A stretch of DNA of 64,000 nucleotides, taken from NCBI GenBank assembly GCA_043228905.1, contig JBHGNT010000015.1:11718001-11782000 (forward strand), given 5' to 3'. The notes under the pieces are model-generated. The model had not been told where the DNA came from, did no database searches, and saw only the letters and a program-made list of their open reading frames with translations. Origin of the DNA: Azolla caroliniana (taxonomy: Eukaryota; Plantae; Polypodiophyta). Positions 31,770-53,321 of this stretch are shown piece after piece; within the stretch, counting starts at the first letter, position 1, and each line of letters begins with the position of its first letter. A program made the position numbers and the translations under genes.

Positions 31770-31928
31770 CAAAACGCAAAACGCAAAATGGTAAAACGCA
31801 AACGCAAACGCAAACGCAGGGAGCCTGCGCTCTGCCTGTCTCTCTCTCTATATATATATTTCCAAAGACATTCAATGGGAGATACGCACTTGCAGAAGAA
31901 GAAGAAGCAGAAACCAGGGAAAACAAGC

Positions 31929-31962
<34 letters not shown>
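31770..31962 (+). promoter_or_regulatory. Probable core promoter and 5' UTR of the GDSL gene
   Basis: (AAACGC)n repeats at 31772-31817, a TATATATATA tract at ~31849-31859, and a (GA)n leader just before the ATG. Confidence 0.5.
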
Positions 31963-31967
<5 letters not shown>

Positions 31968-33256
31968 GAAAGAAGGAAGAGGATTAAGAGGGAGTTGCAT
32001 ACTCGTCGTGGCCTGCAGACAGGTGGCGCTGCTAATTGTGGCAGTGCTGCTGCTTCATATATGTGGTAGATGTGAGGGAAGAGAGCTGATGGACATCCAC
32101 AAGAGCAAGGCGCAGCAAGAGATTCCCACGTACGTATACGCATTTGGAGACTCCATCACGGACACGGGCAACAGCCCCATCGCGGACCCAACGTTGGCAG
32201 GCATAGTGATGAGCCTGCCCTACGGATTGACATGGTTCGGCCATGGCTCCAACCGCTGGTCCGATGGCCGGCTCATCGTGGACTGGCTGTGCATCCGGGC
32301 CTATGGGAGCGGCTGCTCTCCTGGAGCCGGCGGGCTCTTGCCGCCACATCTCGCAATAGTTGCCGATGAGGAGGAGGTGGGGCAAGTGTTGCCAAGGAGC
32401 CAGAATTATGCGGTGGCCGGGGCAACTGCGCTCAGCCCCGATGCGCTCAAGCAAGCCGCGGGCGGATGTGGACACCATCACACCCGACTCCCTGGACGTC
32501 CAGGTGGGCTGGTTTCTACATGATGTGATGAATGCCTCTTCTGTAGGTGGTGGTCCAGCAGGAAGAGGCACTACTCTGATTCACCTAGGGGAGATCGGGG
32601 GAGACGATGTGAACTACGCCCTGCGTGGCCGCATGTCGCCCCTGGACATACGGGAGCGGATCGTACCCCGTGTCATCTCCACAGTCTCCCAGCAGCTCGA
32701 CCGCATCCTGTCCGTCCCTCTGGCCCCGGCGACCATCACACAGGTGGTGATCCAAGGCCAGTTCCCCATGGGCTGCATGCCGGTCTATGTCCTGGAAGTG
32801 AGTGCCAATGCCAGTGCCAATAGCTCATTGGCCCCCGAACTCGATGACTTGGGTTGCGTCTCTGCCGTGAATGCCATTAGCGACCTCCAGAATGAGCTGC
32901 TCAGGTCGTCCGTCATCCCGTCCATAGCCGCAAAGTACCCCCACATATCCTTTGTCTTCCTCGACACGTCCGCCGCCTACCGCCACATCCTCGCCCATGC
33001 CCCCGACTTCGGCTTCTCCAACCTCAACGACCGCATGTGCGACATCAACACCTACATCCTTTATGGCACTCTCGACCAGACAGCACCCCCCCAGTATTGC
33101 TCCGACCCTTCGACATTCGTGAGCTGGGACGGCATCCACCTCACCGATGCCATGGCTGGAGCCCTCGTCGAACTCTTCCTCCGAGGGGACGGCCAAGGAC
33201 ACCACTTCTCCCACCCCTTCCCAAGCTTCCTCAGTGCTTTGGCATCAGATTCATGA
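31963..33256 (+). CDS. GDSL (SGNH) esterase/lipase with signal-peptide-like N-terminus; intronless; one frameshift near 32460 (pseudogene or sequencing error)
   Basis: Block I FGDSITDTGN, then PYG, NRWSDGRLIVDWL and block II NYAVAGATAL in ORF 31963-32523. SLDVQVGWF, block III GEIGGDDVN, PMGCMP and block V WDGIHLT in ORF 32360-33256. Confidence 0.92.
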
Positions 33257-35514
33257 GTCTCTTACTTAGTCTCATATGAAACCATCTATGTATCCATCTA
33301 TCTTTCTATATTTACCTCTGCATTCTGCTCTAGTGAATTAGTGTAGTCAAATATTAAGATTATGTTGCACTCCCAATGCATATAACTATTCCTAAGCAGT
33401 AGAACACTTCTCACTAACACGTCTCTTTATACTCATGGAATTTGTTGTTCATCATTTGGTTGGAGACTTCTCATGTAATTGAAGTCCATGTTGTATTTTA
33501 CTACTACTTCTTGTCATATTTAGTCTTTATATATGAGCTTCTTTTTAGCGTAAGCTTTGAAAATCGACAACTTATTTAGTACTTATCATCGCTACACTTT
33601 GTATCAGCTTTTTATAGTACAAGTTTTGAACCCCATGACTTTTCTCTTCGACAATCTGTACTTAATAAAAGTGTTCTCTTTTATCTACACAATTCTATCC
33701 TTCTTTTTTAGAAGCTCTTGGCCCTTAGTGCTCGTGAGACCCTATATAACGACATCTCATCTTATATACGACAGAAAAAAGAAGCATCCTATGTGCAAGG
33801 GAGACTATAAGAACAATGTGGCTTGCATATTCTCAAAATGAGGGTAAACAATGAGGTGTAACTTAATACTTCAATAAATAATATTAAGTTTGCTTTCATC
33901 ATATATGTGTTGTGCAACTATTCAATTAATTTAATCTAATCTAATCTTGCTTGAAGTTTCTGGGCTCAAGACCTATTTTCACAAACAAAAAGTCTTTAAA
34001 AAATCTTTACTAACGATCTTTTTTTTCCTCAATCACCACTTATGGATGGTGGCCCAATGCTTGATCATTCTCCACTAGGTTTTCATTACATATGTTGTAT
34101 ATCTCCATATTTCAGTGATGATGCCATGATCCTACCTCAACACATAATTTGTGTTAGCATGTTCTGAAGAAGTATTAAGGTTGTCCAAGGGCCAAGGTTG
34201 ATGGGGGTAGTTAGATGCTATTTGGTACGTCCTAAGGTTTCTAACTTCTGTTGGGGCCAACATTGGGGGTTACTAATTTGCCATGTAATTTTCCAAATGT
34301 GTCATTAGAGCATCGTGCAACTTCATCCTTAACGCCCCTAGCACTAGCATCACATGAAAGTTTCAATATATAAATCTTTTACGCAACATTTTTTAAATCA
34401 TTTCATCATGCCAAGGAACTAGCAAACGAGAGAATTTTACTATTATTAGTTTTTTGTACCTTACATCCTATATTCCAAGCTTGTTTTGGCAAAACCTTTG
34501 ATGGAGCATATTCTTGCCTTTTGTGATATACTTGTATAGCCTTTGCATGGCTAGTACCTATATAGGCCAATCACAGTTAATTTGTAATAGCATGATCAAA
34601 TAGGATGTTGAGGATTTTACCAACAATTTTCTACATAAGAACAAATTTGAGATTTCCTTTATTTCATTACATGCACTAAGTGAGATAGTGACATCCCACA
34701 CTTCCACTCTATAAGCAATAATTGGACCACCATAACATCGAATAACATCAATCTCACATCTCCTCTTCGAGTGTCACTTCAGTTGCATTGAGTTTAAAAC
34801 ATATAATAGCTATTCAAACCCTCTTGAAGTCTAGATTCATAGCATACATTAAGAGTAAGCAACTGTTCAGCTCAAGCCTGAACTAATTCGTTAAACTGTT
34901 GGTAAATAGTTTGGCAGATCGGTTCAACACGGATCTTGTGTGATCTTGCATAACTGGTTTGAACTCGGTTCGGTTTGACTTGAGCCCTAATTAATCGGCT
35001 CAAACAAGTTTAGCCATTGATATACTTTTCAACTGATAGAGAGAGAGAGAGAGAGAGAAGAGAAAACTAAAGGTGTTGTAGAAAGAACAACATGTGGAAG
35101 CAACAGAAAGCAGAACGTAGGAAAACACAAGTTTAATGGAGAGCTTGAACATACACACAGTACGTAGGAAAGAGAGAGAGGGGTGAAAGCATGCGAGTGG
35201 AAACAATTAGCTATGTCCTTGACATAGCTAATTAGCTATGCAAAAAGCTACCATTGATAAATAGTCATTTTAGTAAAAAGCCATCATTAATAAATTAAGT
35301 ATGCAAAAAACTACCATTGAAAATACTAGAGTGTTTTAATTACATATGTAAATGAGTGCCATAAATGTGCACCATAAATGTGTACCATAAATTATATATC
35401 GAATTCCTAGGTCCATTATGCATGATCCTTTGCCACATCACGTAGGCCATCTCTAGTTGAGTACTGTGGGTTAGTTGCTACCACTGTTGCTAAACCCTAT
35501 CGAGTCCACCTGCC

Positions 35515-36290
35515 GCCACTCTACACTGAGGGGCCGCTACTGTGCGTTCCAAGCATCATCAAAGAGCTGCTCAATCTGACGGGGTTCTCTTCTCTATGAC
35601 ACTCTACACTCAGGGGCCACTACTGTGCATTCCAAGCATCATCAAAGAGCTGTTCAATCTGACGGGGTTCTCTTCTCTGTGCCACTCTACACTCAGGGGC
35701 CATTACTGTGCGTTCCAAGCATCATCAAAGAGCTGTTCAATCTGAGGGGGTTCTCTTCTCTGTGCCACTCTACACTCAGGGGCCATTACTGTGCGTTCCA
35801 GGCATCATCAAAGAGCTGTTCAATCTGAGGGGGTTCTCTTCTCTGTGCCACTCTACATTCAGGGGCCGCTGCTGTGCGTTCCAAGCATCATCAAAGAGCT
35901 GTTCAATCTGACGGGGTTCTCTTCTCTTTGCCACTCTACACTCAGGGGTTGCTACTGTGCGTTCCAAGCATAATCAAAGAGCTATTCAATCTGACGGGGT
36001 TCTCTTCTCTTTTCCACTCTCACTCAGGGGACGCTACTGTGCGTTTCAAGCATCATTGGTAACTGTTCAATCTGACGGGGTTCTCTTCTCTTTTCCACTC
36101 TCACTCAGGGGCCGCTACTGTGCGTTTCAAGCATCATTGGTAACTGTTCAATCTGACGGGGTTCTCTTCTCTATGCCACTCTATTCTCAAGTGCCTTCTA
36201 TGTGCGTTTCAAGCATCATCGGTAACTGTTCAATCTGACGGGGTTCTCTCCTCCATTGCCATCATTCTATACTCAGTTGCCACTACTGTC
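35515..36290. repeat. 83-bp tandem minisatellite (about 9 copies) upstream of the transposase
   Basis: Unit GCCACTCTACACTCAGGGGCCAYTACTGTGCGTTCCAAGCATCATCAAAGAGCTGTTCAATCTGACGGGGTTCTCTTCTCTGT. The ORF track repeats at 83-bp offsets (35542, 35625, 35708...). Confidence 0.95.
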
Positions 36291-36584
36291 CAGTCCCGGA
36301 TTGCTTCCACATTTCGATTTGACGGAGTTCACTCATCCAACGGCAACATTCTACACTCAGTTGTTGCCATTGGTCGGTCTTGGATCGCCTCCTCAACTGT
36401 TGGATCCAACAGAGTGAAATCCTCTACTGTTCGGTCTTGGATTGCAATAACTTTTCTGTCTATTGATTATCTTGTGTATTGTTGTGTCTAATCTTGTGTA
36501 TTGTGTGGAATATTTTTGTGTATTGTTGTTGCCCATAGCCATCTTTAATACTTGTTTTTTTTTCTGGAAATTTAGGGTTTTAAC

Positions 36585-39500
36585 ATGTCTAGCCAAATGG
36601 AAGGGGAAGAAGGGTGTTTAGAATTACCCCTCAATGATCATAAGGATAGGGATGATGTTATCAGGACACAACAAGCCATACGAAACTATTGGGCAGAAAA
36701 AAAAAGGAAACATCGTCAATTGTTGAAGGATACGAAAGCCACACTCAGTAAAGGTAAGGATAGTTTAGCTGAGAATGTAAGTAATGCGACTACCATCATA
36801 GAGAGAAAGGTTGTAGACTATTTCAATGTTCAAACCAAGCACATCAGCAATGAAGAAAAGAAGGTAGTACTTTATGGAATATGTAATGATCCATCGATAA
36901 AGGACTTAGTTGATTGTGATGGTCTTAATGCAAACATATCATCTATTTTAGTAAATAATCTTCGTAATAGTTTCGTATCCATGAGCAGGTCAGAAGATGA
37001 TCTTGTCTTAAAAAGGTCTAGTCTAATGATGTTACTTAATAGTGATGTTGACGATATAAACATCAGTGAGCTATCTAAGGTAATTGGTGTTAGTAGAAAA
37101 ACAGTGTACAATACAATGAACCGTATAATTTCCTCGGGTGAAGGAACTAGTCTACTAAAGCTAACTACAAGATGTAAGCCAATGACACCCATAACATTTG
37201 AAATCAAGGATGTAATCACAATGTTTTGGACTAATGAGAGTAGGGTTTCACCCAATAAAAAGGATTTATGCAGGAAACGTGTTGGAAGAAATCAATACGA
37301 GGAGCATCCCATTCATCTTCTTGATGTACCTCAGGTATTTACATTTATCTCAACATTTGTTTTGACTCTACTCGGAAAGTTAATTAGCTCAGTTAGCAGA
37401 AAAGCTAATTAGCTTATCAGTTACATTTACCTCAGTTAGCTACTAGGATCGCTACTACATAGGTAACTAGCTACTCTCAATAGTTACTACCATGATAGCT
37501 AATTAGCTATTCTCAATAGCTAATTTAGGTACTACCAGATAATTAGCTGTACTGCTAGCTAGTTAGCTATCATGGTAACTAGTTAGCTATTTCGTTATTA
37601 CCAGCTAATTAGCTACTAGGAAAGCTAATTAGCTACCATGATAGCTAATTAGCTACTATGATAGCTACTACATAGGTAACTGGCTACTCTCAATAGCTAC
37701 TACCATGATAGCTAATTAGTTAGGATAGCTAATTAGCCACCATTATAGCTAATTAGCTACTAGACCAGCTAATTAGCTACCATGATAGCTAATTAGTTAC
37801 TAGGACAGCTAATTAGCCACCGTGATAGCTAATTAGCTACCATGATAGCTAATTAGTTACTAGGAAAGCTAATCAGCCACCATTATAGCTAATTAGCTAC
37901 TAGACCAGCTAATTAGCTACCACGATAGCTAATTAGCTACTAGACCAGCTAATTAGCTACCATGATAGCTAATTAGTTACTAGGAAAGCTAATTAGCCAC
38001 CATGATAGCTAATTAGCTACTAGACAAGCTAATTAGCTACCATGATAGCTAATTAGTTACTAGGAAAGCTAATTAGCCACCATGATAGCTAATTAGCTAC
38101 TAGAGCAGCTAATTAGCTACCATGATAGCTAATTAGCTACTAGGACAACTAATTAGCTACCATGATAGCTAATTAGCTACTACGACAGCTAATTAGCTAC
38201 CATGATAGCTAATTAGCTACTAGAATAGCTAATTAGCTACCATGATAGCTAATTAGCTACTACGACAGCTAATTAGCTACCATGATAGCTAATTAGCTAC
38301 TAGGACAACCAATTAGCTACTAGGACAGCTAATTAGCTACCATGATAGCTAATTAGCTACTACGACAGCTAATTAGCTACCATGATAGCTAATTAGCTAC
38401 TAGAATAGCTAATTAGCTACTACAATAGCTAATTAGCTACCATGATAGCTAATTAGCTACTACGACAGTTAATTAGCTACCATGATAGCTAATTAGCTAC
38501 TAGGACAACCAATTAGCTACTAGGACAGCTAATTAGCTACCATGATAGCTAATTAGCTACTAGAATAGCTAACTAGCTACTAGAATAGCTAACTAGCTAC
38601 TAGAATAGCTAATTAGCTACTAGGATAGTTAGCTAGTTACGAGAATAACTAATTCCCCTTTATTACGCAGGTCGATTTATTTATTAGGTTCAAACGAATG
38701 CATCCAACTATCAAATTTCAACTACGAACATTCGAGTCTCTTAAGCCACACTTTGTGAGACGCTTAAAGGATCGATACACATGTTGTTGCATTTACCATG
38801 TACAGATGGGTTTTCTGAAGGACTCTGTTAATCTACTACGTCACCATAGCGCATCCCTAACTAATACAGTTTGCACATGTGGGTGCCCAATCTGTCGATC
38901 AAGCCCGCAAGAGGAGTGTAAATCATCTGAGCACGTTATCTCTTCCATGAGTTATTTATTAGATTCAATATTGTGTCCGAGAGAATCTGACGCTATCTTC
39001 CATATTCATAAATGTGTCATGGGTTTATGTCAAGATTGTGGCCCTACTAGATTTAGGTGGTGTCCAAATGAATTGAGTAGCGAAATATTGATCTCTGTGA
39101 AGTTATTTGAGTCAGTGAACACCAATTTCGAAGGAAAGGTGTGTAAAAGAAAGGATCTAGTTCGGAAGATGCTTAAACCAAGGGATTTGGTGTCTCTGTT
39201 TGTAGTATCTCTAGGAAAGTTCATTAAACACAACTTCATTTATTCATGGCAGGCCCATCAGTTTAAGACTTGCATATCTGATTTCCCAAATGATGTAGTA
39301 GTCTCAGTAGTAGATTTCGCAGAGAATTATACTTTCAAGCAGCAGAATGAAATTCAATCTATGCATTGGTGTTCAGTTCAGGTAACCATTTTTGTGCACA
39401 TAACATATTTTCGAGTTTCAGGTGATGTTAAAAAAGTAATTCATTTCTTTATTTCCGATGATAAGAAGCATGATACCTTGTTCGTCCAACACTGTTTTAA

Positions 39501-40512
39501 GTTACATTGGCAGTGGTTATTAGCTCAACGTTTGGAGCTTACTCAACATTGGGTCTGGTCTGACGGAGCTGCGTCACAATTCAAGGCTCGACGTCCATTT
39601 TATTTTGTGGGGAGGTATCCTGCTATAACAGGTTTGGAGATGAGATGGAATTTTTTTGGGTCTGGCCATGGTAAAGGTGAACATGATGGTGCAGGGGCTG
39701 TTATAAAGCGGGCACTTACCCATGAACAACTAAAGACAGATGGTGTGCACATGAATTGTGCATCACATGTAGTTGAATTTTTAAGAACAAATATGTCGAC
39801 GAGTGCCACAGGTGTTTATTCCTCGCAAGTTCGAGATATCAAACGTGAATTTTGGGAAGTGAAGATAGATGAAGTAAATAGGGAGAAGACCTGGGAGTGC
39901 CAAGGAATTCCCGAATTGCGATCTCTGCATGCTGTTCGCGGTTATTCCAGGTTGGATGGTCATTGTATTGCGGTTAGAGAATTGACTTGTTTTTGCTTCC
40001 ATTGTGTGCAGGGAAATTGGAGATATTGTCTAAACAAAGCATACATTCAGAATTGGGAGTATCACACTCTGAATGATAAGGAAGCAGTTGATGGAGAAAC
40101 AGGGCAGAATGCTGACTTCACATATGAGGGACTTGGAGATACTTTGAGTGATGTCCTGAACGTTGGGGATAACTTCGCTGTAAATGCTGAAGAAGGCAAT
40201 TCAGAGGGTGCTGATTTCTATATATTAAAGTGCACGGTTAGTAAACAGTGTGCAAGGCAGAATATTGTAGATGCATGGGGAAATTTTGTATCTCCCGGGA
40301 CATTCTACATCGAAGGCATTTTTTATGCAAAACTAGATGACTACGAATATGTGTACAGGCTGTTAGAAGACAAACCAGCGGCGTATATGTACTCTCATTT
40401 GGTCAGATGCATCAACGTCCCAATGTCAGAATACAATAGCTGCTCCGGTTTATACACTGTTGGTGCTAATGTGTATGAATGTATTTACAATAGCATGCCA
40501 TGGAATTTGTAG
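36585..40512 (+). CDS. Spliced DDD/E transposase (Sola2-like), about 863 aa; exons 36585-37334 and 38671-40512
   Basis: Phase-0 intron CAG|GTATTT...TACGCAG|GTC joins LLDVPQ to VDLFIRFKRMHP in frame. HTH-like ISELSKVIGVSRKTVYN, Cys-rich segments, and motifs VDFAENY, EIQSMHW, SDDKKHD, WSDGAASQFK, WNFFGSGHGKGEHDGAG. No stops. Confidence 0.88.
37380..38652. repeat. Array of the palindrome TAGCTAATTAGCTA (20-bp period in the core) filling the transposase intron
   Basis: Regular units from ~37720 to 38620 with 6-bp linkers CCATGA, CTAGGA, CTAGAC, CTACGA, CTAGAA; more degenerate at the edges. Confidence 0.97.
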
Positions 40513-40990
40513 CTACAAGTAGCACTTACCATGTTCTCTTGTAAAACAAACATGTATTTCGCGAAAACAGATCAATAAATTCGTTTGGAATCAATTTCTT
40601 GTATACAGTCTGCTTTCTGTGCTTCTTTCTCAATAAAATCATGTCTTTTTTGTTAAGTTTTAAGTTATAAGTTATAGCGAAATAGTCATCAGTAGCTAAT
40701 TAGCTGTACAAATGCAGCTAATTAGCTGTACAAATGTATTTACAATAGTATGCCATGGAATTTGTAGCTACAAGTAGCACTTACCATGTTCTCTTGTAAA
40801 ACAAACATGTATTTCGCGAAAACAGATCAATAAATTCGTTTGGAATCAATTTCTTGTATACAGTCTGCTTTCTGTGCTTCTTTCTCAATAAAATCATGTC
40901 TTTTTTGTTAAGTTTTAAGTTATAAGTTATAGCGAAATAGTCATCAGTAGCTAATTAGCTGTACAAATGCAGCTAATTAGCTGTACAAAT
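40478..40990. repeat. 255-bp tandem duplication spanning the transposase stop codon and 3' UTR
   Basis: GTATTTACAATAG(C/T)ATGCCATGGAATTTGTAG starts at both 40481 and 40736, and the following sequence is near-identical, including AATAAA motifs. Confidence 0.93.
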
Positions 40991-41136
40991 GCAGCTAATT
41001 AGCTGTCAATAGCTAAATAGTCATCAATAGAATGAAATCAACAATCTGCAACATATTCCTCAAATTACACAGTAGATAAGTACAGTGGGAACAAGTAATT
41101 AAATTCTTCATTGAATAATGTCATCTCTTTACATAT

Positions 41137-42191
41137 TTATAAATTACCATTGGAAATGTCTACAAATCTCCTATAAACAGCTAAGCTCTTGCTAGTCAGT
41201 GGAACGAGTCTACATATATTATCCGCATATTGAGCTCGGTATGGAGTCCACAACCATGCACCTAGTTGGCAGCTCACTGTTTGCACCAGGTACTGTTCAG
41301 GCATTTCCTCGGGTAGAATGAGACAGCATCTCCGAATATTGAAGTAGTGTCGGAAATGTTCTGTATCCAAAATCAATGTATTGTCAGCATTATATTCAGG
41401 CCAAGTAGCCCAAAAATCAGAAAGTCTCTTGAATCTTGCAGCTTCCATCTGCTCACAATTTTCTCGTGCCCATTGACCTTTAAAACGACTTCGCCATTTT
41501 GGGAAGAATCTTGCCAAACACTTCCACACATCTAATTTTGGTTTTTCACTCCAAATAAACAAATCAAAGTACTCCACAGCCCACTCTAGAAACTGATTTG
41601 CGTCCCTCCTTGGCTGCATATATCTCACACTCATCAAGACTTTATCCAGCTCCAAGATCAAGGCTCTTCTTTCGACTTCTAGTGGTTTAGGTTTCCATTC
41701 CTGAAACTGAGCCGCTGTTACACCATTTTCTGGTAGGATACGATCAATCTCAATCAGCTCAGGTTCGGCTGACACAACTAGTGTCCTTTTCCTCTTTAAA
41801 CCCCTAGTCGACTGTGTTGGGCCTAGCTTCACATTCTGGTGCTCTTGTTTTGTCGACTTAGTTATCAATCCTTGGATTACCTCAGTGCATGTAGCTACTG
41901 TTCTGCTCGATATCAGTCCACTGGTATCACATGCTGCATCTACCTGCAACACCAAGTCATCCGTGCTACATGCTGCATCTACCTGCAACACCAAGTCATC
42001 CGTGCTACATGCTGCATCTACCTGCAACACCAAGTCATCCGTGCTACATGCTTGATCAACTTGTGTGACCAGATCACTTGTGTCAGTTGCTACATCTACT
42101 TTCAAGATGGGGCCCTTTAAACATGCCGCAACATCAACAGTATCCACACTGCCATTGGCCTTACGAGCAATAGAATCAAACCCTTTAGACT
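41137..42191 (-). CDS. Terminal exon/ORF encoding 13-aa repeats plus an FCP1/SCP (NIF) HAD-phosphatase-like domain with a degenerate active site
   Basis: ALILELDKVL, RRDANQFLEWAVEYFDLFIWS, FKRLSDFW and YNADNTLILDTE follow the FCP1-homology pattern. (VDAACSTDDLVLQ)n repeats; NLS-like LKRKR; candidate acceptor GTTGCAG| at 42192. The upstream exon is uncertain. Confidence 0.7.
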
Positions 42192-42440
42192 CTGCAACAT
42201 CAGAAAACACCAACATATTCACACTCACAAAGTAACTAATAGTCTCACAAAACAATATCCTGAACATCAAAGAGTTTCAGTCATAGAACAACACTCTTCA
42301 AATTATCTTGGAAAAACATCATAGAGTTCCATTACATAATGTGGATCAAGCAACAACCAATCTGAGGTTTTACTTGTCCAACAGGATAGTAAAACTTCAT
42401 AAAACCCTAGCAAAATCCCTAAGCTAACAATCATATCCAA

Positions 42441-45400
42441 CTAAACAGTATTTCGCTCCACTACGTCTAGGCCCCTTGACCGAGTAACTGGTCTTGTTCC
42501 CGATCGTGGCCCCTTCTTCAGCCTTTTTCTGGTTGGTTCCCCATTTAGCCTTGCTTCTAGGACCCAATGCGCAAGTGTGTCCTCCTCCGACAACCTTCCC
42601 ATCGCCTCAGCAACTAATTGCACATCAGCCGTTTCTTGAACTAGCTTTTCAAGTACAGAGGGATCTGTTTGGACATTTTCAGTAGTTGGGCTCGGTGGGG
42701 TGGAATCAAGGTCTTGAGACTCGAAGAAATGTTGCATCAAGTGTTCATAAACACTGTTGTTGTGAACCTCAGTTTTACATGTTGTTTCCACTATTTCATG
42801 GCATTTCACATCGTTGCCTAATTCAGTACACTGTTCCAAAAGAATAGGGTGCAGCTGATCTGAAGGAGATGTGATAGCAGGACTCTTACTTTACTCAACT
42901 AATTAGGATAGCTAATTAGGTACTTTACTCAACTAGTTAGGATAGCTAATTAGGTACTTTACTCAACTATGGTAGTAGTTAGGATAGCTTATTAGCTACT
43001 AGGACAGCTAATTAGCTGCCAGTAGCTAATTAGCTACTAGGATAGCTAATTAGCTGCCAGTAGCTAATTAGCTACTAGGATAGCTTATTAGCTACTTTAC
43101 ACAACTATGGCAGTAGCTACTAGGATAGCTAATTCGCTAGGATAGCTAATTCGCTAGTAGGATAGCTAATTAGTTGCCAGCAGCTAATTAGCTAGTAGGA
43201 TAGCTAATTAGCTAGTAGGATAGCTAATTAGCTACTAGGATAGCTAATTAGTTGCCAGTAGCTAATTAGCTAGTAGGATAGCTAATTAGGTACTTTACTC
43301 AACTATGGTAGTAGCTAATTAGCTAGTAGGATAGCTAATTAGGTACTTTACTCAACTATGGTAGTAGCTAATTAGCTAGTAGGATAGCTAATTAGCTACT
43401 AGGATAGCTAATTAGCTGCTAGTAGCTAATTAGCTACTAGGATAGCTTATTAGCTACTTTACACAACTATGGCAGTAGCTAATTAGTTACTAGGATAGCT
43501 AATTAGTTGCCAGTGGCTAATTAGCTAGTAGGATACCTAATTAGCTTTTTTACACAACTATAGTACTAGCTAATTAGCTAGTACCATAGCTAATTACCTA
43601 CTAGGATAGCTAATTAGCTAGTAGGATAGCTTATTAGCTACTTTACACAACTATAGTAGTAGCTAGGATAGCTAATTAGCTACTATGGTAGCTAATTAGC
43701 TACTTTACTCAACTATGGTAGTAGCTAGGATAGCTAATTAGCTACTTTACTAACTATGGTAGTAGCTAGGATAGCTAATTAGCTACTTGACTAACTATGG
43801 TGGTAGCTAGGATAGCTAATTAGCTACAATGAAAGCTAATTAGCTACTTTCTCAACTATGTAGTAGCTAGGATAGCTTATTAGCTACTAGGACAGCTAAT
43901 TAGCTGCCAGTAGCTAATTAGCTACTAGGATAGCTAATTAGCTGCCAGTAGCTAATTAGCTACTAGGATAGCTTATTAGCTACTTTACACAACTATGTCA
44001 GTAGCTAATTAGCTACTATGATAGCTAATTAACTAGTAGGATAGCTAATTAGCTAGTAGGATAGCTAATTAGTTGCCAGTAGCTAATTAGCTAGTAGGAT
44101 AGCTAATTAGCTATTTTACACAACTATGCTACTAGCTAATTAGCTAGTACCATAGCTAACTAGCTACTAGGATAGCTTATTAGCTACTTTACACAACTAT
44201 GTCAGTAGCTAATTAGCTACTATGATAGCTAATTAGCTAGTAGGATAGCTAATTAGCTAGTAGGATAGCTAATTAGTTGCCAGTAGCTAATTAGCTAGTA
44301 GGATAGCTAATTAGCTTTTTTACACAACTATGGTACTAGCTAATTAGCTAGTACCATAGCTAACTAGCTACTAGGATAGCTTATTAGCTACTTTACACAA
44401 CTATGGCAGTAGCTAATTAGTTACTAGGATAGCTAATTAGTTGCCAGTGGCTAATTAGCTAGTAGGATAGCTATTTAGCTTTTTTACACAACTATGGTAC
44501 TAGCTAATTAGCTAGTACCATAGCTAATTAGCTACTAGGATAGCTAATTAGCTAGTAGCTCATTAGCTGCCAGTAGCTAATTAGCTAGTAGGATAGCTAA
44601 TTAGAAAAGACTAAGCTTATTAGCTACAGTATGGTATACCTGTTTGTTTTCTCCACTCATTTGGTAGAGTTGTACTGCAATCTCCCAAACAGAATGCAGC
44701 AATTCAACAGGCATGTTGAAAACAAAGCAGATGGTATGTGTGGTTGCATGGTTGTAGGTGAACCAACAAAGACGCAGTTTTGTCCTCCACACCTAACCTG
44801 CAAGCGATGCAACGTGCTTGAACTGTCAATAAATCATTTTTTGGTTCTACTTCATTTGGTAAGGGAGCAAGAATGTTCAGGTCCAAATCCTGTCTGGTCC
44901 TTACCATTCCCTCCACAAAATGTAGCTTCTTCTTAAGGCAGCTAACTACCTGTTCTTGATGAATGTATTGTTCCTTCAACGCAACAGAGAAATTTACCGA
45001 TTAATTATTCTTGTTGTTGAAAGATACACCAACTTTGCTCAGGAATCGTTAACTTACTTGAAGCTTATCCAAATTGTAATCTGCAACAGTATTTACACCT
45101 AGAAGGTCCAGGTTCATTGAAAGAACCTGGATCTCTATTTGCAGTTCTATTTTACGCTGGGGATCCAGTGGCCCCTCTAATTCAAGCTCCTGTTGCGCAA
45201 CCTATTCCAGATAATGCTTGATTAGCACATTTTACCCGTTATTTATAACACAATCACATACCAGCAAAACAATAGTTACCTGAATCTTATTTCTAATTGT
45301 TGTAACAGCAGAAGTAACTTTGCTCTCCATTGCAGAAGCCATTGTGGCTTTCTCTAAATCAGTCTTAAAAAATGCCAATGTCTCACAGGCTTCATGGACA

Positions 45401-46258
45401 TTTTTTAGCATATAGCTAACCAATGTCTCACCTGTATCATCGACATTGGCTTTCCTTGGGTGACATATGCCCCCGGTCTTGCTGGGAGTCGGCAGTTGCA
45501 TCAACAGCTGCCATGCTCCAAAATCTGTCTATTTTTTGTGCCAAGGTCCCCATCTTTCGGCATCTTTTTACCGATGCCTCACCATAGACTGCCCAAGCTA
45601 CCCTATACATTTCAGGGTCTCTAGATTCCTTCGCTGTTTTGCAGTACTCATATGCAAATGCTCTAGCAAATGAAACTAACAACTCATTGTTGACTGGGAT
45701 CTCCTGATGAACTTTCTGGTGCAGTCTCATGCAGTCATCGTACAAGTCGGCTCGTACATGCTTCAGCTTGACCTTGCCTTTGACTCTAGGCACTGTATAT
45801 ACTGTCATCCAGTCTATATCACTGATCAATTTATCACTTAGGACAGCAGGGTCAACACCCTCGAGTGACAGACCATAGGTGTTGTGGAAGTCCTCCTTTG
45901 TCTCGCAAAATTTTGCGAAGTTTAGCACTCTCGTATACGGAGGAACGAGCCATCTGAAATATCATTTCAGAAATCAGAAATAGTGCAAAATCAGAATATG
46001 TGAGAATCAAAAACCCCAATCAACAACAACAAAAATGGTGCAAAATCTTTAACTTAGCAAATCAGAAACCCTAATCATAATTTGTAATCAAATTTCTAAT
46101 TTGTAATCAAAATTTGTAACCAGAAACCCTATTCAGAAATTTCAATCACAAACCCTAATCAGAAATTTCAATCACAAACCCTAATCACTAAAGACAGGAT
46201 TAAACACAAAAAAAGTAATATAAACACACCTGTTGCTACTCCCCGATTTGCGAGACAT
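42441..46258 (-). pseudogene. Five-exon gene for a RING-finger protein; one frameshift and one in-frame TGA
   Basis: Predicted exons 46258-46230, 45953-45280, 45201-45058, 44973-44640 and 42859-42441, all GT-AG with matching phases. RING-H2-like CIAC...PCNHTYHLLC...FCLGDC. TGA at 44704, frameshift near 45520, basic C-terminus RKRLKK. Confidence 0.72.
42890..44628. repeat. Second TAGCTAATTAGCTA array, filling the last intron of the RING gene
   Basis: Same palindrome with linkers such as CTAGGA, GTAGGA, (G)CCAG and the longer CTTTACACAACTATGG(C/T)AG, arranged in higher-order blocks. Confidence 0.97.
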
Positions 46259-46735
46259 CCTTGTATGGGACTCCAAGGACTTCGCCCTATTCGATTTTGG
46301 GGAAATATGAATCGGCACCAAAGTTCAGACAGTAGTCAAAAAGAAAAAACAAATGTTTGGGGTTTCTATAACTGAAACATACCTGGACGATGATCGAGCG
46401 GGTTCTGTGTTGTAGCTCTCAATCTGCAATGTCGATTTTTTGCTGTTGCGGGAGCTACGTCTGCGTTCGTGCTCTGAGTACTCCATCTGCGATCAAAATC
46501 AGACTTAGGCTAAACAGGAAATTGATGACATTGAAGTCGACCTTAGATGATGGTGATATTCCCCAAGTTCCACTACGTCTGAAACAGAAGTTCAAATATT
46601 TGAGTTTTTTCATAAATTAGTTTTTCAAATATTTGATTTTCCCACAAGAAAGACTAGCTAAACAAATAGCTAATTAGCTATGGCCATTTTAGTAGCTAAT
46701 TAGCTATAATAGTGTTTCCACTCGCATGCTTTTAC

Positions 46736-46780
<45 letters not shown>

Positions 46781-49700
46781 ATACACACAACTCTATTAAA
46801 AAATAATACTCAATCTGTACATAGAATGTGCTCAGCGAGCACTTTTATACAAGTCCATACGGACTGACAGAAATGTTGACACGTACTTCAATGCTCATAA
46901 ATGAGGTCTACACTAACTCTCAAAATATATTCCTACACGGAATATCTATCCAATGGCCTTGCGGTTTACGCACTGCTATGGCTTCTTGTTGCGCACCAGT
47001 TTACACACCCGGTTTACGCACCAGTCCGGCCTAATCGATCAGTCCCAACCGATCCGGTTCTCGGCTTGTACATCCGAGTCGGCCAATGTTGAGCTTGTAT
47101 CTCAACACTCCCCCTCAAGCTCAACTTGGGGCTCTTTTGGTTCTTCTGGATCACCACTCCGGTTTCTTCTAGCTTCACGCCTCGCTCGCAGTCCTCGACT
47201 TGTTCGATTCCGCGCGCCTCGACCCTTCCGATCGGCGTGTGTGCTCGTACGACCCTTCTCAGCTCCCTTGTTGTCGCAGTATTGGCGCATTTTCGGCTGT
47301 CCTTTCTTCTGCTTGGCCCTCGGTTGATTCGGCGTCTCCGAATCAAACATCCGTACTGAATTGGCTTCCTCCGATCGGTTTTCGTTCTCATCCGAGTTGG
47401 CTTCATCTCCCCCACACGTGGCTGGCTTCGGCTCTTTCACGGATCAGCCCTCAGCTTCTTCAGCCGACCCGAAATCGAATTCTTCATCCGACTCGGCATC
47501 ACGGTCTCTTCCCCTCCTTTCCTGCTCCTTTCCGTGGTCTTTCGGGACTTCTCTCCGCCTCAAGTTCGGCACATTGAGGTGTAGCAACCCAAGCACACCC
47601 GAGAATTGGCGCAACTTGTTGAGACCAAGGGGCTTGGTGAAAATGTCGGCGGTCTGCCGATCCGTCGGAACATACTGAAGTTCGACTTCACTGGAGAGGA
47701 CACGCTCAGAGACAAAGTGGTAGTGCACCTCAATGTGCTTAGTCCGGGCATGGAAGACAGGGTTCTTCGCTAACTGGATGCTCCTGAGGTTGTCGCAGTA
47801 GATCGTCGTCGGATGGACACCTCCACCTACAGATCCTCAAGTAGCCGTTTCAGCCAGATGGCTTCGCATGTTGCGATAGCCGCTCCCTATACTCAGCTTC
47901 AGTGCTCGACACTGCAATTGTCGGCTACTTATTGCTACTCCACGCGATCGTAACGCTCCCAAGAGAGAACGCGAATATGGAGGTGGATCGGTAATCGCCG
48001 GCGTTTCCGACCCAATCAGCATCGGTGTAACCGACTAACTGCGCGACAATATCGGTCCGATATAGTAGCCCCTGGTCCTTAGTGCCACTAACATACCAGA
48101 GTACGCGTTGTGCGCACTGAAGGTGCTCCTTGATTGGCCGCGCCATGAACTGACTAATCACACCAATTGGGTAACTGAGGTCTGGTCGAGTGATAGTCAA
48201 GTAGATGAGGCTTTCCACAATCTGTCGGAACCTCTTCGGGTCGCAAACCTTTCCGGAGTCGGGGCGAAGCTTGACAGTTCTATCTAGAGGAGTCGAGACG
48301 GACTTACAATCTGCCATCCCGAACTTGAAGAGCATACCTAGCACGTAATGTCGTTGGCTGATCAATATGCCTTCGGGGGTATGGATCACTTTAATCATGA
48401 GGTAGTAATGAAGGTCCCCCAGGTCCATCATGTCAAATGATGCCACGAATTGGAGGTTTACGCGCTCGATTTCACCTAGGTTGGTGCCGGTGATGTCCAA
48501 GTCATCAACATAAAGTAAAATACAAACCGGCCCGAGTGGACCTTTCCAAATGAACAGTGAAGAGTCCGATTTGGACGTTGCAAATCCCATCCGACGCAAT
48601 CACTGCGTGATTTTCGCATTCCAAGCACGCGGGGCTTGCTTTAGTCCGTAAAGGGACTTCTTCAACCGGCAAATCGGCGAGGTGTTCATTCTGGAGTGAA
48701 ATCTGAGGGGTTGTACCATGTACACCTATTCCTCAAGCTCGCCTTGCAGGAACGCATTCTTGACATCCATCTGATGTAAATGCCACCCCTTCGCCGCTGC
48801 TACGGCTATTAGAACAAGCACGGTAGTCATCTTCGCGACAAGCGCGAAGATCTCGTCGTAGTCCACGCTATGCTTCTGCGCGTAGCCTTTCACTACTAAC
48901 CGGGCCTATTATCAATTGACCGAGCGCATGTCTTCCTCCATTGCGGTGCGTCAACTAGGTCCCAGGTTTCATTCTCCGCCAATGCACGCATCTCTTCTTC
49001 CATTGCAGCATGCCAATTTGCATCCTTCGCCGCTTTTGTGTAGCACTCCGGCTCACGCACTTCCGCTACACGCGTCATGTACGCATAGTGATGCGCCATG
49101 TACTCGTTCTATCCGAACCGCACAACAGGGTTCTTCTAGCAGGTAGATCGGCGTAACTGCTCATTAGCCGATGTTGAGGCTTTCTTGGCTGACGTAGACT
49201 TCGCTCTCGAAGGCCCATCATTGCTCTTCTTGTAGTCGGATTCGCGTCGATCCGACTCGCCCTAATCCGTGTCGTACTCTGGCATCTTCTTCTTCCCTTT
49301 TTCCTTGCGCGTAAATCGTCTCCTCGGCTTCCTGTGCAGGGAATGCACGGCCGAGTCTCCACTACGCCCCAACTCTTCTGCGAATTGGCCAAACCAACCC
49401 AGTCGCTCGTTCGGTCCACTTAGCCGAAATGAAATCGGACTCTCATCGAGAGTCTTGATTTCGCGGTCATCTAGAGGCATTTCAGCCTCGCTGACCTCAT
49501 CGTCAGAACTCAGGTCCGGAGATCCGGAGTTGGAGTTGAGGTCTGGAGTCGGAGGCAAGTACTAGGACGCGGACTCATCAAACATAACATTGCGGCTCAC
49601 ATGAGCTTGTTTGGTTCAGGGGTTATAACATTTATAACCCTTCTAATCGTTCGAATAGCCGACCAAGATACGCTTCTCGGCTTTCGCGTCCAACTTCCTC

Positions 49701-52025
49701 CGTTTCTCCTTCGGCACATGCACATACGCAATGCTACCGAAGACTCTCAAGTGTTGTATATTCGGCTTTCTTCCGAAATACAGCTCATGTGCCGACACTT
49801 TGTCTCCGATCCGATTCTGAATGTTGACCGCGGTTCGTACCGCTTCGGTTCAGTAGAACTTGGGCAAGCTCTTTTCTTCCAGCATTGCTTGCGCCGCTTC
49901 CACAACCGACCGATTTTTCCTTTCGGCTACGCCATTTTGCTCCCCGTTGTAACTGAATTCGCACCGAATTCCCATTTGTTGTAGATAACTGTTGAATTGG
50001 CCAGAAAAATGCTCTTTTCCGCCATCCGACTGTAGGCACTTGATTTTTCTCCCTGTTTCCCTTTCTACAAAGCTTTTGAGGTTCCAGAAACACTCGAAGA
50101 TTTCACTCTGCTTTTCAATGAGATAGATCCACGTGTGCCGCGTGTAGTCGTCAATGAAGGAAACAAAATATCGACTCCCACCAAGATTAACGTTCTGCGT
50201 TGGTCCCCATACATCCGAATGTATCAAGTCGAGCTTGTCCCGGCTCCGGTTACGCTCGTTGGGGAAAGGAAGTCGGTGTTGCCTCCCTAGTTGGTAGGCT
50301 TCACAAATTTGGGCCTTCCGGCCACTGAATTTGGGCAATCCAAACACAACTTGTTTCGATTGCAAGTCCCTAAGCCTTTGATAGTTGACGTGGCCTATCC
50401 TCTTGTGCCACAAGTCGATATCCGACGTGACATTTTGTCCTTTTGTGAACATTGTGGTGCCAACTTCGTTGGTGTCAAGGATGAACATCCTCCCATCTCT
50501 GCGCCCTTGCGCAATAACTTGGCCTTCCTCCTCGATGAAGCACCCGAGATGCGTGAACCGGACTTGCATCCCCTGGTCGACAATCTGCCCAACCAACACC
50601 AGATTCTTCATGATTGTCGGGACGTGTAACACATTCATGAGTTTCTGTTTTTGCCCGACATGGCTCAAGGGAACTTCACAGACATTCTCGATCAGATGCG
50701 AAGTGTCGTCTCCTGGTGCAACTACTCCCGGTTGCATCGGTTTCTCAAGGTATGAGAACCACTCCTTATGGTTCGTCATGTGGTTTGACACGCCGGAGTC
50801 AACGTACCACACCTCTTCATGTGATTTCGGGGTGGTATTCTTCATCGAGTTCGCCTCGTGTCTCATCACGAAGGTTGCCCCCTTTCCGACTTTTTTGGAT
50901 CCTTGGGCGTAGTGCGATCACTGTCGATTTCCTTTGTCGGTTTGTTCGGATCCGGATCCAATTTTCTCCAAATTGGCGCGCTTCTTCCAACACTCGCTCT
51001 CCTTGTGGCATTTCTTACCACATTACTAGCATTCCATGATGGGTTTCCCTTGTCGGTTCTCATCGCCTCGACTCCCCCTATTTTCGGAGGGTCCGGAATT
51101 TCTGTTGACATCATTTCAGGGTCTTCTTCCTTGATCCCGTTGGCCGCCTCCATTGCGCACCGACTCACCTCGTCCGCTACGACCACGGGGCCTATCTCCC
51201 TCCGTGTATATCATCTTGCTATCGGTGTTCGTACTCGTCGAAGCACCCGTGTGGTTCTCCTCTATAAGGAGCATTGACTGTAGGTCGAAAAATGATGGCA
51301 TATTCTCCCGTGTGCACACAGCAGTTCGGAATGCTCCAAACTTCGATGCCAGTTCCTCGAGACAAATTTGCACCATCTCGCCTTCCTCGACATTCACATC
51401 GATGGAGGCTAAGGTGCCGCATATATCTTTGATCTTCGAGGTGTAATCAGCCACCGACAAATCGCGTTGTCGCAAGTTGCTCAACTCCTATCGGAGTTGG
51501 AGCTTTCTAGCTGTGGTGCTTCTGGCGAAAATCCTTTTAAGATTTCCCCAAACATCCTTTGGCGTTTTCGCATCCCGATTATAGATTAGAAGTTGTTTGC
51601 CCACACAAGACGCGAAGCAGTAGAGAACTTTGCTCGCCGACTGTTCCCATGCCGGGAAGTCTTTGTGTGTCGAATCGGGTGCTGTGTCATTTGCTCCATC
51701 GACATAGATCCAATATCCATGCTCGAGTAGGTACTGGTGCATCTTGTACGACCAAGATGCGTAGTTGTTTCTTTCGAGCTTCTCGGTCGGAAGCGAGCTA
51801 GCCATGCCTCTATCCATTTTGTTTTCCTTGTTCTTTACAAAGGTTAGGTTTTCTTCTCGAGTTAAGGTCGACTGCAGAGGTTCTCAACCCTCGCGCTCTG
51901 ATACCATGTAGAAAGAACAAGGTGCGGAAGCAACAGAAAGCAGAACGTAGGAAAACACAGGTTTAATGGAGAGCTTGAACACACACAGAGTATGTCGGAG
52001 AGAGCGAGAGAGAGAGAGGAGAGAC

Positions 52026-52200
52026 TAGGTGGTCATGGGTTCAACCTCTACATTCCACCATGGCATCTAGTGAATTAAGAGATATATATGAAGTATATAA
52101 TAGAGAGAAGTGAGAAAATTCGGTTTCGAACCCAAGATGTGGTACTTGTAGTGTTAACAACATACCACTAGGGTAAGCTAATTACAATAATAATAATAAA
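52026..52200. mobile_element. About 175-bp insertion with tRNA-like boxes in the (GA)n tract of the copia 5' LTR
   Basis: Absent from the partner LTR. Contains GGGTTCAACC on + and TAGTGGTA...GGGTTCGAAACC on -; ends in (AAT)n. Confidence 0.55.
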
Positions 52201-53321
52201 AGAGAGAGAGAGAGAGAGAGAGTCAATACACACAACTCTATTAAAAAATAATACTCAATTTGTACATAGAATGTGCTCAGTGAGCCCTTTTATACAAGTC
52301 CATATGGACTGACAGAAGTACTGACACGTACTTCAATGCTCATAAATGAGCTCTACACTAACTCTCAAAATATATTCCTACGCGGAATATCTTTCCAACG
52401 GCCTCGCGGTTTACACACCGCTACAACTTCTTGTTGTGCACCAGGTTTACACACCGGTCCTGCCTAACTGATCGGTCCCAACCGATCCGGTTGTCGGCTT
52501 GCACAGTCGATCCGACCAATGTTGAGCTTGTATCTCAATAGGTGTGACATCCTTACCGTCCTAAAAATTGAGAGAGAACAAATGACTCCCAACTAGCTCA
52601 AAACAACGTGTGGAGGAAGTCACCCAATTAAATGATTGACTAGATATCAAAATTATATAACTTCACAAAAGAGCAAAGGATCTCGACTAAGTACAAACAA
52701 AATTTGGCCCACTAAAAGATAAGATCTGATGCCTTGAGACCACATTGGAGGCAAATATATAAATAAAGCAAACTCCTTCTTGAAGGTGCATGTGCAAAGA
52801 GGGAAAAGGTAGAAAGAAATTACCAAGCTACGCACAGAGAGACAAGTCCTTGACAAGAACTTCGTGAATGCGAAATCTTCCACTTGAACAAGAGGAACAT
52901 TTGACAAAACTCACCGCGAGCCAACCTAACACAATACAACCCATACAATGTATGTGAACACAACATTATATCTCACAACCCATACAATGTAAGTCTCTAG
53001 TCATTTTAGAATAAACGAAGCAGGCTCTCCTGGTTTGTTAGCCACAAAGAAAGTATTCTATGAAAATGACCAATCAGCAATCATGCAATGGGCAAAGTTC
53101 ATTAATGGTATGGTTGTACTGCAGACAACAATCATTCCCAACATGGACATCATCGACCTTGTATATTTTTCGCCTACGCAAATGACATGACCATGTTGGA
53201 GGGTAAGGAACAACTGAAGAACCTCTTCACTGCTCTTGGAAAGCTACACGCAATTGCTTGAGATTTGTCAAAGCCATACCTGAGAGGAAAGATGGTTGCT
53301 ATCACTAATAAGTTTCAACCG

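Follow-up and report, generated by a model that had tools for sequence, protein, structure and literature searches.

As yet, few cases of sequence-specific anti-silencing by transposons have been reported (PMC12973397). In VANDAL21, rapidly evolving tandem repeats of the VANC21 motif lie upstream of the transposase and within introns of two genes, and VANC21 binds such arrays in introns (PMC5735166). No description of the structure of VANC21 was found in the literature searched. For Spm/TnpA and the AtMu1 transposase, binding and demethylation were described at clustered, family-specific motifs near the termini; TnpA targeting needs dense motif clusters, and a transposase acting by itself is able to switch on copies of its own element (bioRxiv 10.64898/2026.08.24.746577). 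A large Sola element of Ectocarpus, Sola1-1_Ec32, carries an accessory gene on the opposite strand, a ParB and methyltransferase fusion, which was proposed to bind and modify the element's own DNA (PMC12477816).

We analysed a 64-kb stretch of DNA (the window), which contains an 11.6-kb element (35181-46737) bounded by 25-bp terminal inverted repeats (TIRs) and carrying two convergent genes. The element resembles the VANDAL/VANC system of Arabidopsis MULEs (PMC5735166, PMC10398659) in being a multi-gene DNA transposon whose short motif, a different one in each family, has built up fast-evolving tandem arrays in its introns, between its genes and in terminal non-coding DNA. Unlike in VANDAL/VANC, the transposase is of Sola2 type and not of MULE type (VANA), the element has TIRs with abutting motif, the motif is palindromic (12-14 bp) and forms arrays of kb length, its cores covering about half of each array-bearing intron, no DUF1985 or DUF287 was detected in the second gene, and an anti-silencing activity would here be an inferred one. 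Clustered motifs and a putative element-encoded binder are shared with Spm/TnpA and AtMu1; in contrast to their terminal sites, most sites of the element are internal and lie in introns. Sola1-1_Ec32 is similar in size class and in its opposite-strand gene and differs in belonging to Sola1 and in the type of that gene; the accessible part of its account makes no mention of palindrome arrays (0 matches for 'palindrom'; PMC12477816). The view of the sequence-only reading that no such layout had been described was thus wrong, since VANDAL21 has it (PMC5735166). Judged from the sequences, what appears to be new is its convergent occurrence in another superfamily, without a detectable VANC-like protein.

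The element and its two genes

The features of the element are as follows.

35181..35205, forward strand: left TIR, 25 bp, 24/25 identical to the reverse-complemented right TIR (46713-46737)
35205..35238, no strand: left subterminal module with 13-bp arms and a 3-bp spacer (35205-35233), from sequence comparison
35515..36289, forward strand: 83-bp unit in 9.3 tandem copies, free of the motif and lying upstream of the transposase (repeat analysis)
36585..37334, forward strand: transposase exon 1, 250 codons from the start codon, helix-turn-helix near residues 146-185 (Pfam HTH_11, E 5.6e-05, which falls below the curated Pfam cut-off)
37335..38670, forward strand: transposase intron with array 1, 56 cores (≤2 mismatches), 20-bp period (sequence analysis)
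38671..40512, forward strand: transposase exon 2, encoding 613 aa with the Sola2-type DDE core and, at the C-terminus, a predicted BAH-like domain (alignment motifs, fold comparison)
40694..41004, no strand: five 12-bp motif cores between the gene 3' ends, partly within a 255-bp tandem duplication (40478-40991)
41137..42200, reverse strand: predicted last exon of the second gene, NIF/FCP1-like domain (Pfam NIF, E 7.3e-07), 5' boundary uncertain
42441..42859, reverse strand: predicted second-gene exon after array 2, 3' splice donor uncertain
42860..44639, reverse strand: predicted second-gene intron with array 2, 73 cores (≤2 mismatches) at 18-, 20- and 33-bp spacings, from GT..AG and reading phase only
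44640..46258, reverse strand: 5' coding exons of the second gene, with an N-domain of unmatched fold, a helical region and a RING finger; introns partly from X19 contigs
46667..46706, no strand: pair of full motifs lying between 46620, where a spliced second-gene contig reaches furthest upstream, and the right TIR
46713..46737, reverse strand: right TIR, pairing with the left TIR

By its sequence the element is a Sola2-type DNA transposon, an assignment made by comparing the catalytic motifs by eye with a published Sola2 alignment. It shares with Sola2 the motifs DFAENY..Q.EIQS.HW, ISDD..HD, SDGA.SQFK and W.FF..GHGK...DG.G..KR as well as TIRs, and its length of 11.6 kb exceeds the usual 2-9 kb while lying inside the reported range (PMC3627910, PMC10741241). 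In the Sola literature searched, mostly open-access papers, we found no description for Sola2 of a conserved convergent accessory gene, a BAH-like C-terminus or motif arrays; the family may have an entry in Repbase.

The first transposase intron is well supported (GT..AG, same position in the closest relatives), and it is missing from 12 of 30 testable homologous loci. Fold comparison of exon 2 gave an integrase-type fold for the DDE core (Z 10.4, rmsd 2.9 over 142 residues) and a BAH fold for the predicted BAH-like domain (Z 6.2-7.3), and D215, D298 and D339 are invariant among 42 homologues. Exon 2 matched no Pfam family (E up to 1), the transposase profile had no match among PDB sequences, and no relative was found in the viral and prokaryotic collections. 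Searches with the array and TIR patterns in viral contigs found nothing; the array pattern had one isolated cyanobacterial match, and an Rfam search of 35100-52600 gave no match.

In the window copy, a frameshift near 45465 and a stop codon (44704-44706) disrupt the second gene. Contigs of run X19 skip introns 46229-45954 and 45279-45202, as read from depth and record lengths. Contigs from two runs guessed to be RNA cover the predicted last exon; contigs of such runs gave no coverage at either side of junction 42860 and none bridges the array-2 intron, the RNA status being a guess, with none of the listed runs recorded as RNA. The array-2 intron had been taken for the last intron of the RING gene, which is probably wrong because homologues have a downstream NIF-like domain in the same protein. 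This domain lacks the canonical DxDxT motif. The N-domain was modelled with confidence (pLDDT 92), its best fold match reaching Z 2.4; Pfam, Atlas and fold searches gave no match, which does not prove a new fold, and an HMM of the domain found only weak matches in the other loci (best E 0.001-0.002). We considered a VANC or PMD relationship, which was unsupported: Pfam found neither DUF1985 nor DUF287 in the second-gene exons or in 46 homologues, and comparison of the N-domain, folded alone, with VANC21 gave E 7.7 and TM 0.17.

AGAG flanks the element on both sides, where Sola2 elements have a 4-bp target site duplication (TSD), but it stands within an AG tract, so that any even TSD length fits this single complete copy. 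Targeting of (AG)n as a general rule was rejected, as the related element L002 begins inside a LINE reading frame and L007 after a T-run; one X19 contig running from the TIR into non-AG sequence also contradicts it. The family is present in very many copies and strongly amplified in two organisms; near-identical contigs reach a depth of >8000 versus 33-68 for the divergent contigs listed, which is not a copy number.

Distribution of the palindromic motif

Allowing one mismatch, TAGCTAATTAGCTA has 108 matches in the window (shuffles: mean 0.01, largest 1), all of them inside the element and none in coding exons or flank, which bears out the earlier description of palindrome arrays in two introns and beside both TIRs that spare the coding exons. 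Of the 57 exact copies, array 1 (37335-38670) contains 22 and array 2 (42860-44639) 32; the remaining three are single copies at 35225, 46667 and 46693. For the 12-bp core AGCTAATTAGCT (≤1 mismatch), array 1 has 51 copies and array 2 has 72, with five more at 40694-40993, one at the left end of the element and two at the right; the coding exons and 52.4 kb of flank have none. The other 79 loci, many of them probably from other hosts, gave no match to the motif in 697 kb of sequence. Since the motif has a stop codon in all three frames and, being palindromic, on both strands, its absence from exons needs no special cause. Between the gene 3' ends, where copies had also been claimed, they are indeed present, though as the 12-bp core only and in part through the 255-bp duplication.

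At the left end, the subterminal module consists of a partial motif and TGTC-n3-GACA and passes into a full motif at 35225-35238. L002 and L007 have the TGTC-n3-GACA core at their 5' ends too, between flanks that are particular to each family. The element also has unrelated tandem repeats of 83, 255 and 39 bp.

Within array 1, spacing is exactly 20 bp in 48 of 55 cases. Its linkers contain CATG or CTAG in 38 of 48 cases, as had been noticed, but only the 18 with CATG sit on the dyad axis; dyads at 10 bp arise from any row of palindromes. Arrays 1 and 2 have only 3 of 888 26-mers in common, indicating that they were amplified separately around the same core.

Words of related families

In related families, this conserved intron holds words that differ from one family to the next. 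In a quick tree of the window and 33 of 80 loci (34 rows, the loci picked so that duplicates were avoided), the clade of the window comprises eight rows (support 100), all of which have a repeated word in the intron or 3' intergenic region; sister rows share words. In the sibling L001, whose exons are 97-98% identical to the window, the intron has 0 of 1053 40-mers in common with it, yet core and 20-bp period are kept, so that the array recurs in a sibling element. TAATTA is common to the window and L002, the nearest distinct family, while unrelated words occur in L007, L006/L008 and L048. The HTH recognition region varies by family and is most alike between the window and L002, the two with a TAATTA core (read by eye). 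In one branch with an 89-92-bp intron 1, a word of its own, TTAGTACTAA, sits in a different intron instead. Among 18 homologous loci with the intron, six have a clearly repeated word, six a short intron and six a longer intron without array.

Intron-derived words were enriched after the transposase stop in five of seven families (0/500 shuffles each), L007 and L013 lacking their own word there, and in none of the seven families' own coding exons. Off-diagonal matches were seen for L008 with L004 words, L013 with L006 words and the window with L002 words. The same word was found at the element end in all three families with an end available, in one weakly; the ends of L002 and L007 were inferred from 5' similarity without a matching 3' end. 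The longest intron-repeated word in the first 100 bases measured 15 nt (left) and 18 nt (right) in the window (0/300 shuffles each), 12 nt in L002 (0/300) and 10 nt in L007 (11/300), in a test that was designed after seeing earlier results and covers these three families only. At each end, the longest match came from that end's own family. A first test gave no enrichment at the L002 end (149/500 shuffles). Words thus change in step by family across intron, 3' intergenic region and element end, the check that the sequence-only reading had proposed for its view of the motif as a binding site of an element protein. The outcome supports the view of a putative binding site that is used at the ends and multiplied inside.

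Possible roles of the arrays

Because related families repeat the layout with their own words, the word is likely the place where a protein of the element itself docks. Our leaning, on balance, is that the palindrome would be a family-specific binding site of an element protein and the intron arrays platforms that keep the genes active. As a matter of judgement and not of result, the putative binder is likely the transposase, for which we see somewhat better than even chances, with the second protein a serious second candidate and a host factor an unlikely one. The transposase would bind through its N-terminal helix-turn-helix, and the intron arrays would act as high-density landing platforms by which both element genes stay active against host silencing. 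At each end, one or two sites may be used for recognition of the end and for the pair of promoters that face inwards. Wherever extra DNA is tolerated, slippage or unequal exchange would multiply the site, selection would favour arrays that bind more protein, and protein and word would drift jointly from family to family. A chromatin-side activity could come from the predicted BAH domain and the second protein with its unmatched fold, RING and NIF-like domains. Against this explanation stand the limited spread of arrays among the intron-bearing homologous loci, the words missing after the stop in L007 and L013, the first result at the L002 end, the off-diagonal matches, the words that kin have in common by descent, and the fact that purely mutational spread of an end motif predicts much the same pattern.

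Such a spread is a possible, if rather improbable, account of the whole: the word would be the transposase end site, and the arrays neutral, seeded by template switching in gap repair and expanded by slippage where harmless. Stops in all frames simply explain the absence from exons, and fast array turnover, the many relatives without array and the unrelated tandem repeats also fit. However, the same core was kept in two separately amplified arrays while linkers diverged, each of the eight clade rows has its own repeated word, and one branch rebuilt the array in another intron.

We consider it unlikely that the arrays titrate the transposase or block intron transcription as a negative self-regulation limiting host damage. 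Some 125 internal sites versus three full terminal ones and the great abundance of the family (read from contig depth) would suit a sink, but strong amplification in two organisms does not, and by analogy the known dense-motif precedents activate rather than repress.

Still less probable are introns that form long RNA stems cut to small RNAs silencing or regulating the family. Both window arrays do fold far above shuffles (z -22.9 and -13.4; z -29 for the window array in the comparison with L002), as do the introns of L004 (z -18.0) and L007 (z -10.6), but palindromes fold automatically, perfect stems in the folded part of array 1 reach 14 bp at most, and the presence of the word next to the TIRs speaks more naturally for a role as DNA. 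Moreover, the L002 array is non-palindromic, with 18 copies forward and none in reverse, and shows no folding (z -0.9), and the L005 word is likewise one-directional. Hairpin RNA is therefore not the conserved feature, contrary to the earlier proposal of intronic hairpins. Recruitment of a host transcription factor is the most improbable reading: TAATTA, which we take to resemble a homeodomain site, is shared by the window and L002, but the unrelated words of L007, L006/L008 and L048 are better fitted by an element-encoded, co-evolving binder.

Extending the preferred reading of a self-encoded binding site, we tentatively suggest, from sequence comparison and with clear reservations, that a Sola2 clade of seed-free plants may have independently evolved VANDAL-like self-addressing. 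An HTH and BAH transposase, or the conserved accessory protein (unmatched fold, RING, phosphatase-like), would bind a family-private word in kb-long intron arrays and relieve silencing for no family but its own, and word and protein would change jointly. The N-terminal domain of the second protein, confidently modelled and yet unmatched, deserves study in its own right. The several families, each of which has a word and a candidate binder of its own, form a ready specificity matrix, and protein-motif co-evolution is therefore directly testable; new programmable DNA-binding or epigenome tools could result. If true, the proposal would add a convergent example from another superfamily and from seed-free plants, and anti-silencing would be a recurring solution.

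Motif arrays in the Sola2-type element

The element (35181-46737) has 25-bp TIRs with 24 matching bases. It lies in an AG tract within one LTR of a Copia-like retroelement (partner LTR at about 51907-52538), and because of this insertion into an AG tract its TSD is unreadable. The AG tract of the partner LTR holds an additional stretch of about 175 bp (52025-52200) at the site matching the Sola insertion point; this stretch, possibly a SINE, had no match in Rfam and by eye contains a word resembling a tRNA B-box. A GDSL lipase-like host gene (by eye) was seen at 31795-33256, about 2 kb upstream of the element. Contigs from two DNA runs and two organisms covered all 30 bins. Near-identical contigs exceeded a depth of 8000, compared to 33-68 for divergent contigs listed in the same run; the family is many-copy, these depths giving no copy number.

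At up to one mismatch, the window contains 108 matches to the palindrome TAGCTAATTAGCTA (0.01 expected), all of them within 35225-46706. At the same tolerance, the 12-bp core occurs five times between the gene ends, three times beside the termini and in two intronic arrays:

37335-38670, plus strand: array 1, transposase intron, 51 cores
42860-44639, minus strand: array 2, predicted intron of the convergent second gene, 72 cores

The element's coding exons and 52.4 kb of flank contained no core. The sequence-only reading had also stated that the motif spares coding exons; this is correct, and the stop codon present in every frame of the motif is sufficient explanation alone. Array 1 keeps a strict period of 20 bp (48 of 55 spacings), and array 2 mixes spacings of 18, 20 and 33 bp. 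Only 3 of 888 26-mers are common to both, indicating separate growth of the two arrays around one shared core. The dyads described about every 10 bp in array 1 arise in part automatically, and CATG lies on the axis in only 18 of 48 linkers.

CG is nearly missing from both arrays (observed/expected 0.26 and 0.04, respectively; exon 2, 0.64), and nearly all of their cytosines are in CHH context. An 83-bp tandem repeat (9.3 copies, 35515-36289), unrelated to the motif, precedes the transposase; relatives carry tandem repeats at the corresponding position (L031, 63 bp; L035, 53 bp; L046, TGATTA x108).

Family-specific words in related elements

A metagenome scan yielded 80 homologous loci (L numbers). 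Among the 30 with both exons, the intron was missing in 12 and present at the same place in 18, six of these with a clearly repeated short motif (word), six with an intron of 89-92 bp and six with a longer intron lacking an array. The window's clade comprised eight rows (support 100, quick tree), each of which repeats a word in its intron or 3' intergenic region.

Repeated words by locus
Window and L001: AGCTAATTAGCT
L002: AGTGGTAATTAG and ACTAATAGTGCT
L004: ATGCTAGTTAGCAT
L005: TTAACTAGCATAC
L006 and L008: TTTGGTACT
L007: AGGTGAAAATTTCACCT

L001 is identical to the window at 731/747 and 1780/1842 exon positions, yet no intron 40-mer is in common. In the short-intron branch, TTAGTACTAA arrays occupy a different intron and in L077 also follow the stop. 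The L002 second-gene region contained only a few degenerate copies, and arrays in both genes are therefore shown only for the window family.

Of 7 families, 5 (all but L007 and L013) showed enrichment, downstream of the transposase stop, of words chosen from the intron alone; none of the seven showed it in its own coding exon. Off-diagonal matches were L006/L008, L008 with L004, L013 with L006, and the window with L002. In two relatives the 5' end is included; it starts like the window TIR, and a TGTC-n3-GACA core is retained there between family-specific flanks. Two end tests covered three families. The first found enrichment for the window and L007 (0/500) and none for the L002 word (149/500). 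In the second, designed after the first, the longest of the intron-repeated words present at an end always belonged to that end's own family (0, 0, 0 and 11 of 300 shuffles); among 20 cross comparisons, a single one gave 6 of 300. The change of motif in step at ends and introns, raised by the sequence-only reading, is seen among relatives, weakly in one of the three families with an end. Words like GGGTGAAAGCATG occur upstream of the transposase in distant loci (L002:1790, L007:39, L027:5462, L071:986), where they may mark 5' ends.

Two element-encoded proteins

The transposase, 863 aa long, is the product of the plus-strand gene, which has two exons. The HTH match in exon 1 is weak; exon 2 models as an integrase-type fold and, compared by eye, contains the Sola2 motifs aligned in supplementary file S10 part 1 of PMC3627910. 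The last 120 residues resemble BAH domains in 9 of the best 50 structure matches, at middling Z values of 6.2-7.3 (best, DNMT1 BAH1, rmsd 2.8 over 86 residues). All listed matches to this C-terminal region are BAH-bearing proteins; six are so titled. Judged from its model, the domain may read chromatin and so serve in target choice or in self-regulation. Named homologues came from mosses, liverworts, ferns and conifers, then animals, and Sola elements are described as abundant in one fern genome in an excerpt of PMC6786969.

~40130-40480, plus strand: BAH-like C-terminal domain, transposase residues 486-603 (structure model)
45470-45955, minus strand: second-gene N-domain
46382-46287, 46229-45954 and 45279-45202, minus strand: three predicted second-gene introns

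The second gene runs from 46258 through an N-terminal domain, a helical region and a RING finger; past array 2 follow a linker and a NIF/FCP1-like domain without DxDxT, the canonical motif of this domain type. Three homologues (P0247, P0278, P0297) unite these parts in one protein, and the first reading, which placed array 2 in the last intron of a RING gene, is therefore probably wrong. A NIF-like gene has the same convergent position in L004 and L007. The N-domain has 127 relatives among 50% representatives and a confident model (pLDDT 92); a fold search gave no match (best Z 2.4). Some of these relatives have retrotransposon gag domains in the same records. The L013 convergent gene has a stretch resembling the N-domain by eye, where the HMM detected none.

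Two defects break the gene in the window copy, a frameshift (near 45465) and a stop (44704-44706). The stop is missing from >99% of the depth there in both DNA runs; position 45465 is covered by a single contig of run X3, with 8 more bases than the window. In run X19, RNA by guess and from another organism, contig depth and record lengths fit exact skips of the three predicted GT..AG introns, as computed from tables with no joint listed, which points to transcription and splicing of the gene in a relative. Among contigs of the runs guessed as RNA, none bridged array 2. The last exon holds an in-frame 39-bp tandem repeat (3.2 copies, 41929-42052); tandem peptide repeats also occur in VANC proteins, according to part of PMC5735166.

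A putative binding site and its parallels

The word abuts both TIRs, recurs between the genes, underwent amplification twice and, from one family to another, gives way to a different word in all compartments at once. For a word with these features, the best reading is a site bound by a protein that the element encodes. The likelier binder would be the transposase, because the sites touch the TIRs and its HTH region varies with the word (by eye), with the second protein as an alternative. Such a protein would dock on the word at the ends and in the arrays, and we lean toward the arrays acting as an activating, anti-silencing platform.

Neutral expansion of the arrays is a less probable account, and a role as a sink seems improbable. 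The intronic hairpin RNA proposed from the sequence holds for the window copy, in which both arrays fold (z -22.9 and -13.4), but the hairpins are not conserved: the L002 array is one-directional (z -0.9), and we consider hairpin RNA quite unlikely as the role of the arrays. Binding of a host factor is the least credible reading.

The layout, for which the sequence-only reading knew no described system, is known in kind. In PMC5735166, VANC21 binds a 9-bp motif whose tandem repeats, which change fast, pile up in the introns of VANDAL21 as well as upstream of its transposase; the motif used by VANC6 is a different one. Escape from RdDM is the driver proposed for this in PMC10398659. Further, extracts of a preprint (bioRxiv 10.64898/2026.08.24.746577) report that TnpA requires dense motif clusters and that AtMu1 transposase alone activates its own copies. 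For Ectocarpus, PMC12477816 proposes a Sola1 element whose accessory gene is self-marking. The Sola2 literature covered by our search, with most subscription papers and Repbase outside it, describes neither arrays nor this accessory gene nor the BAH-like tail.

We conclude that the motif-array observation is real, family-linked and comparatively supported. By analogy, the element resembles VANDAL/VANC in layout without being a member: its transposase is of another type, and no VANC domain could be detected.
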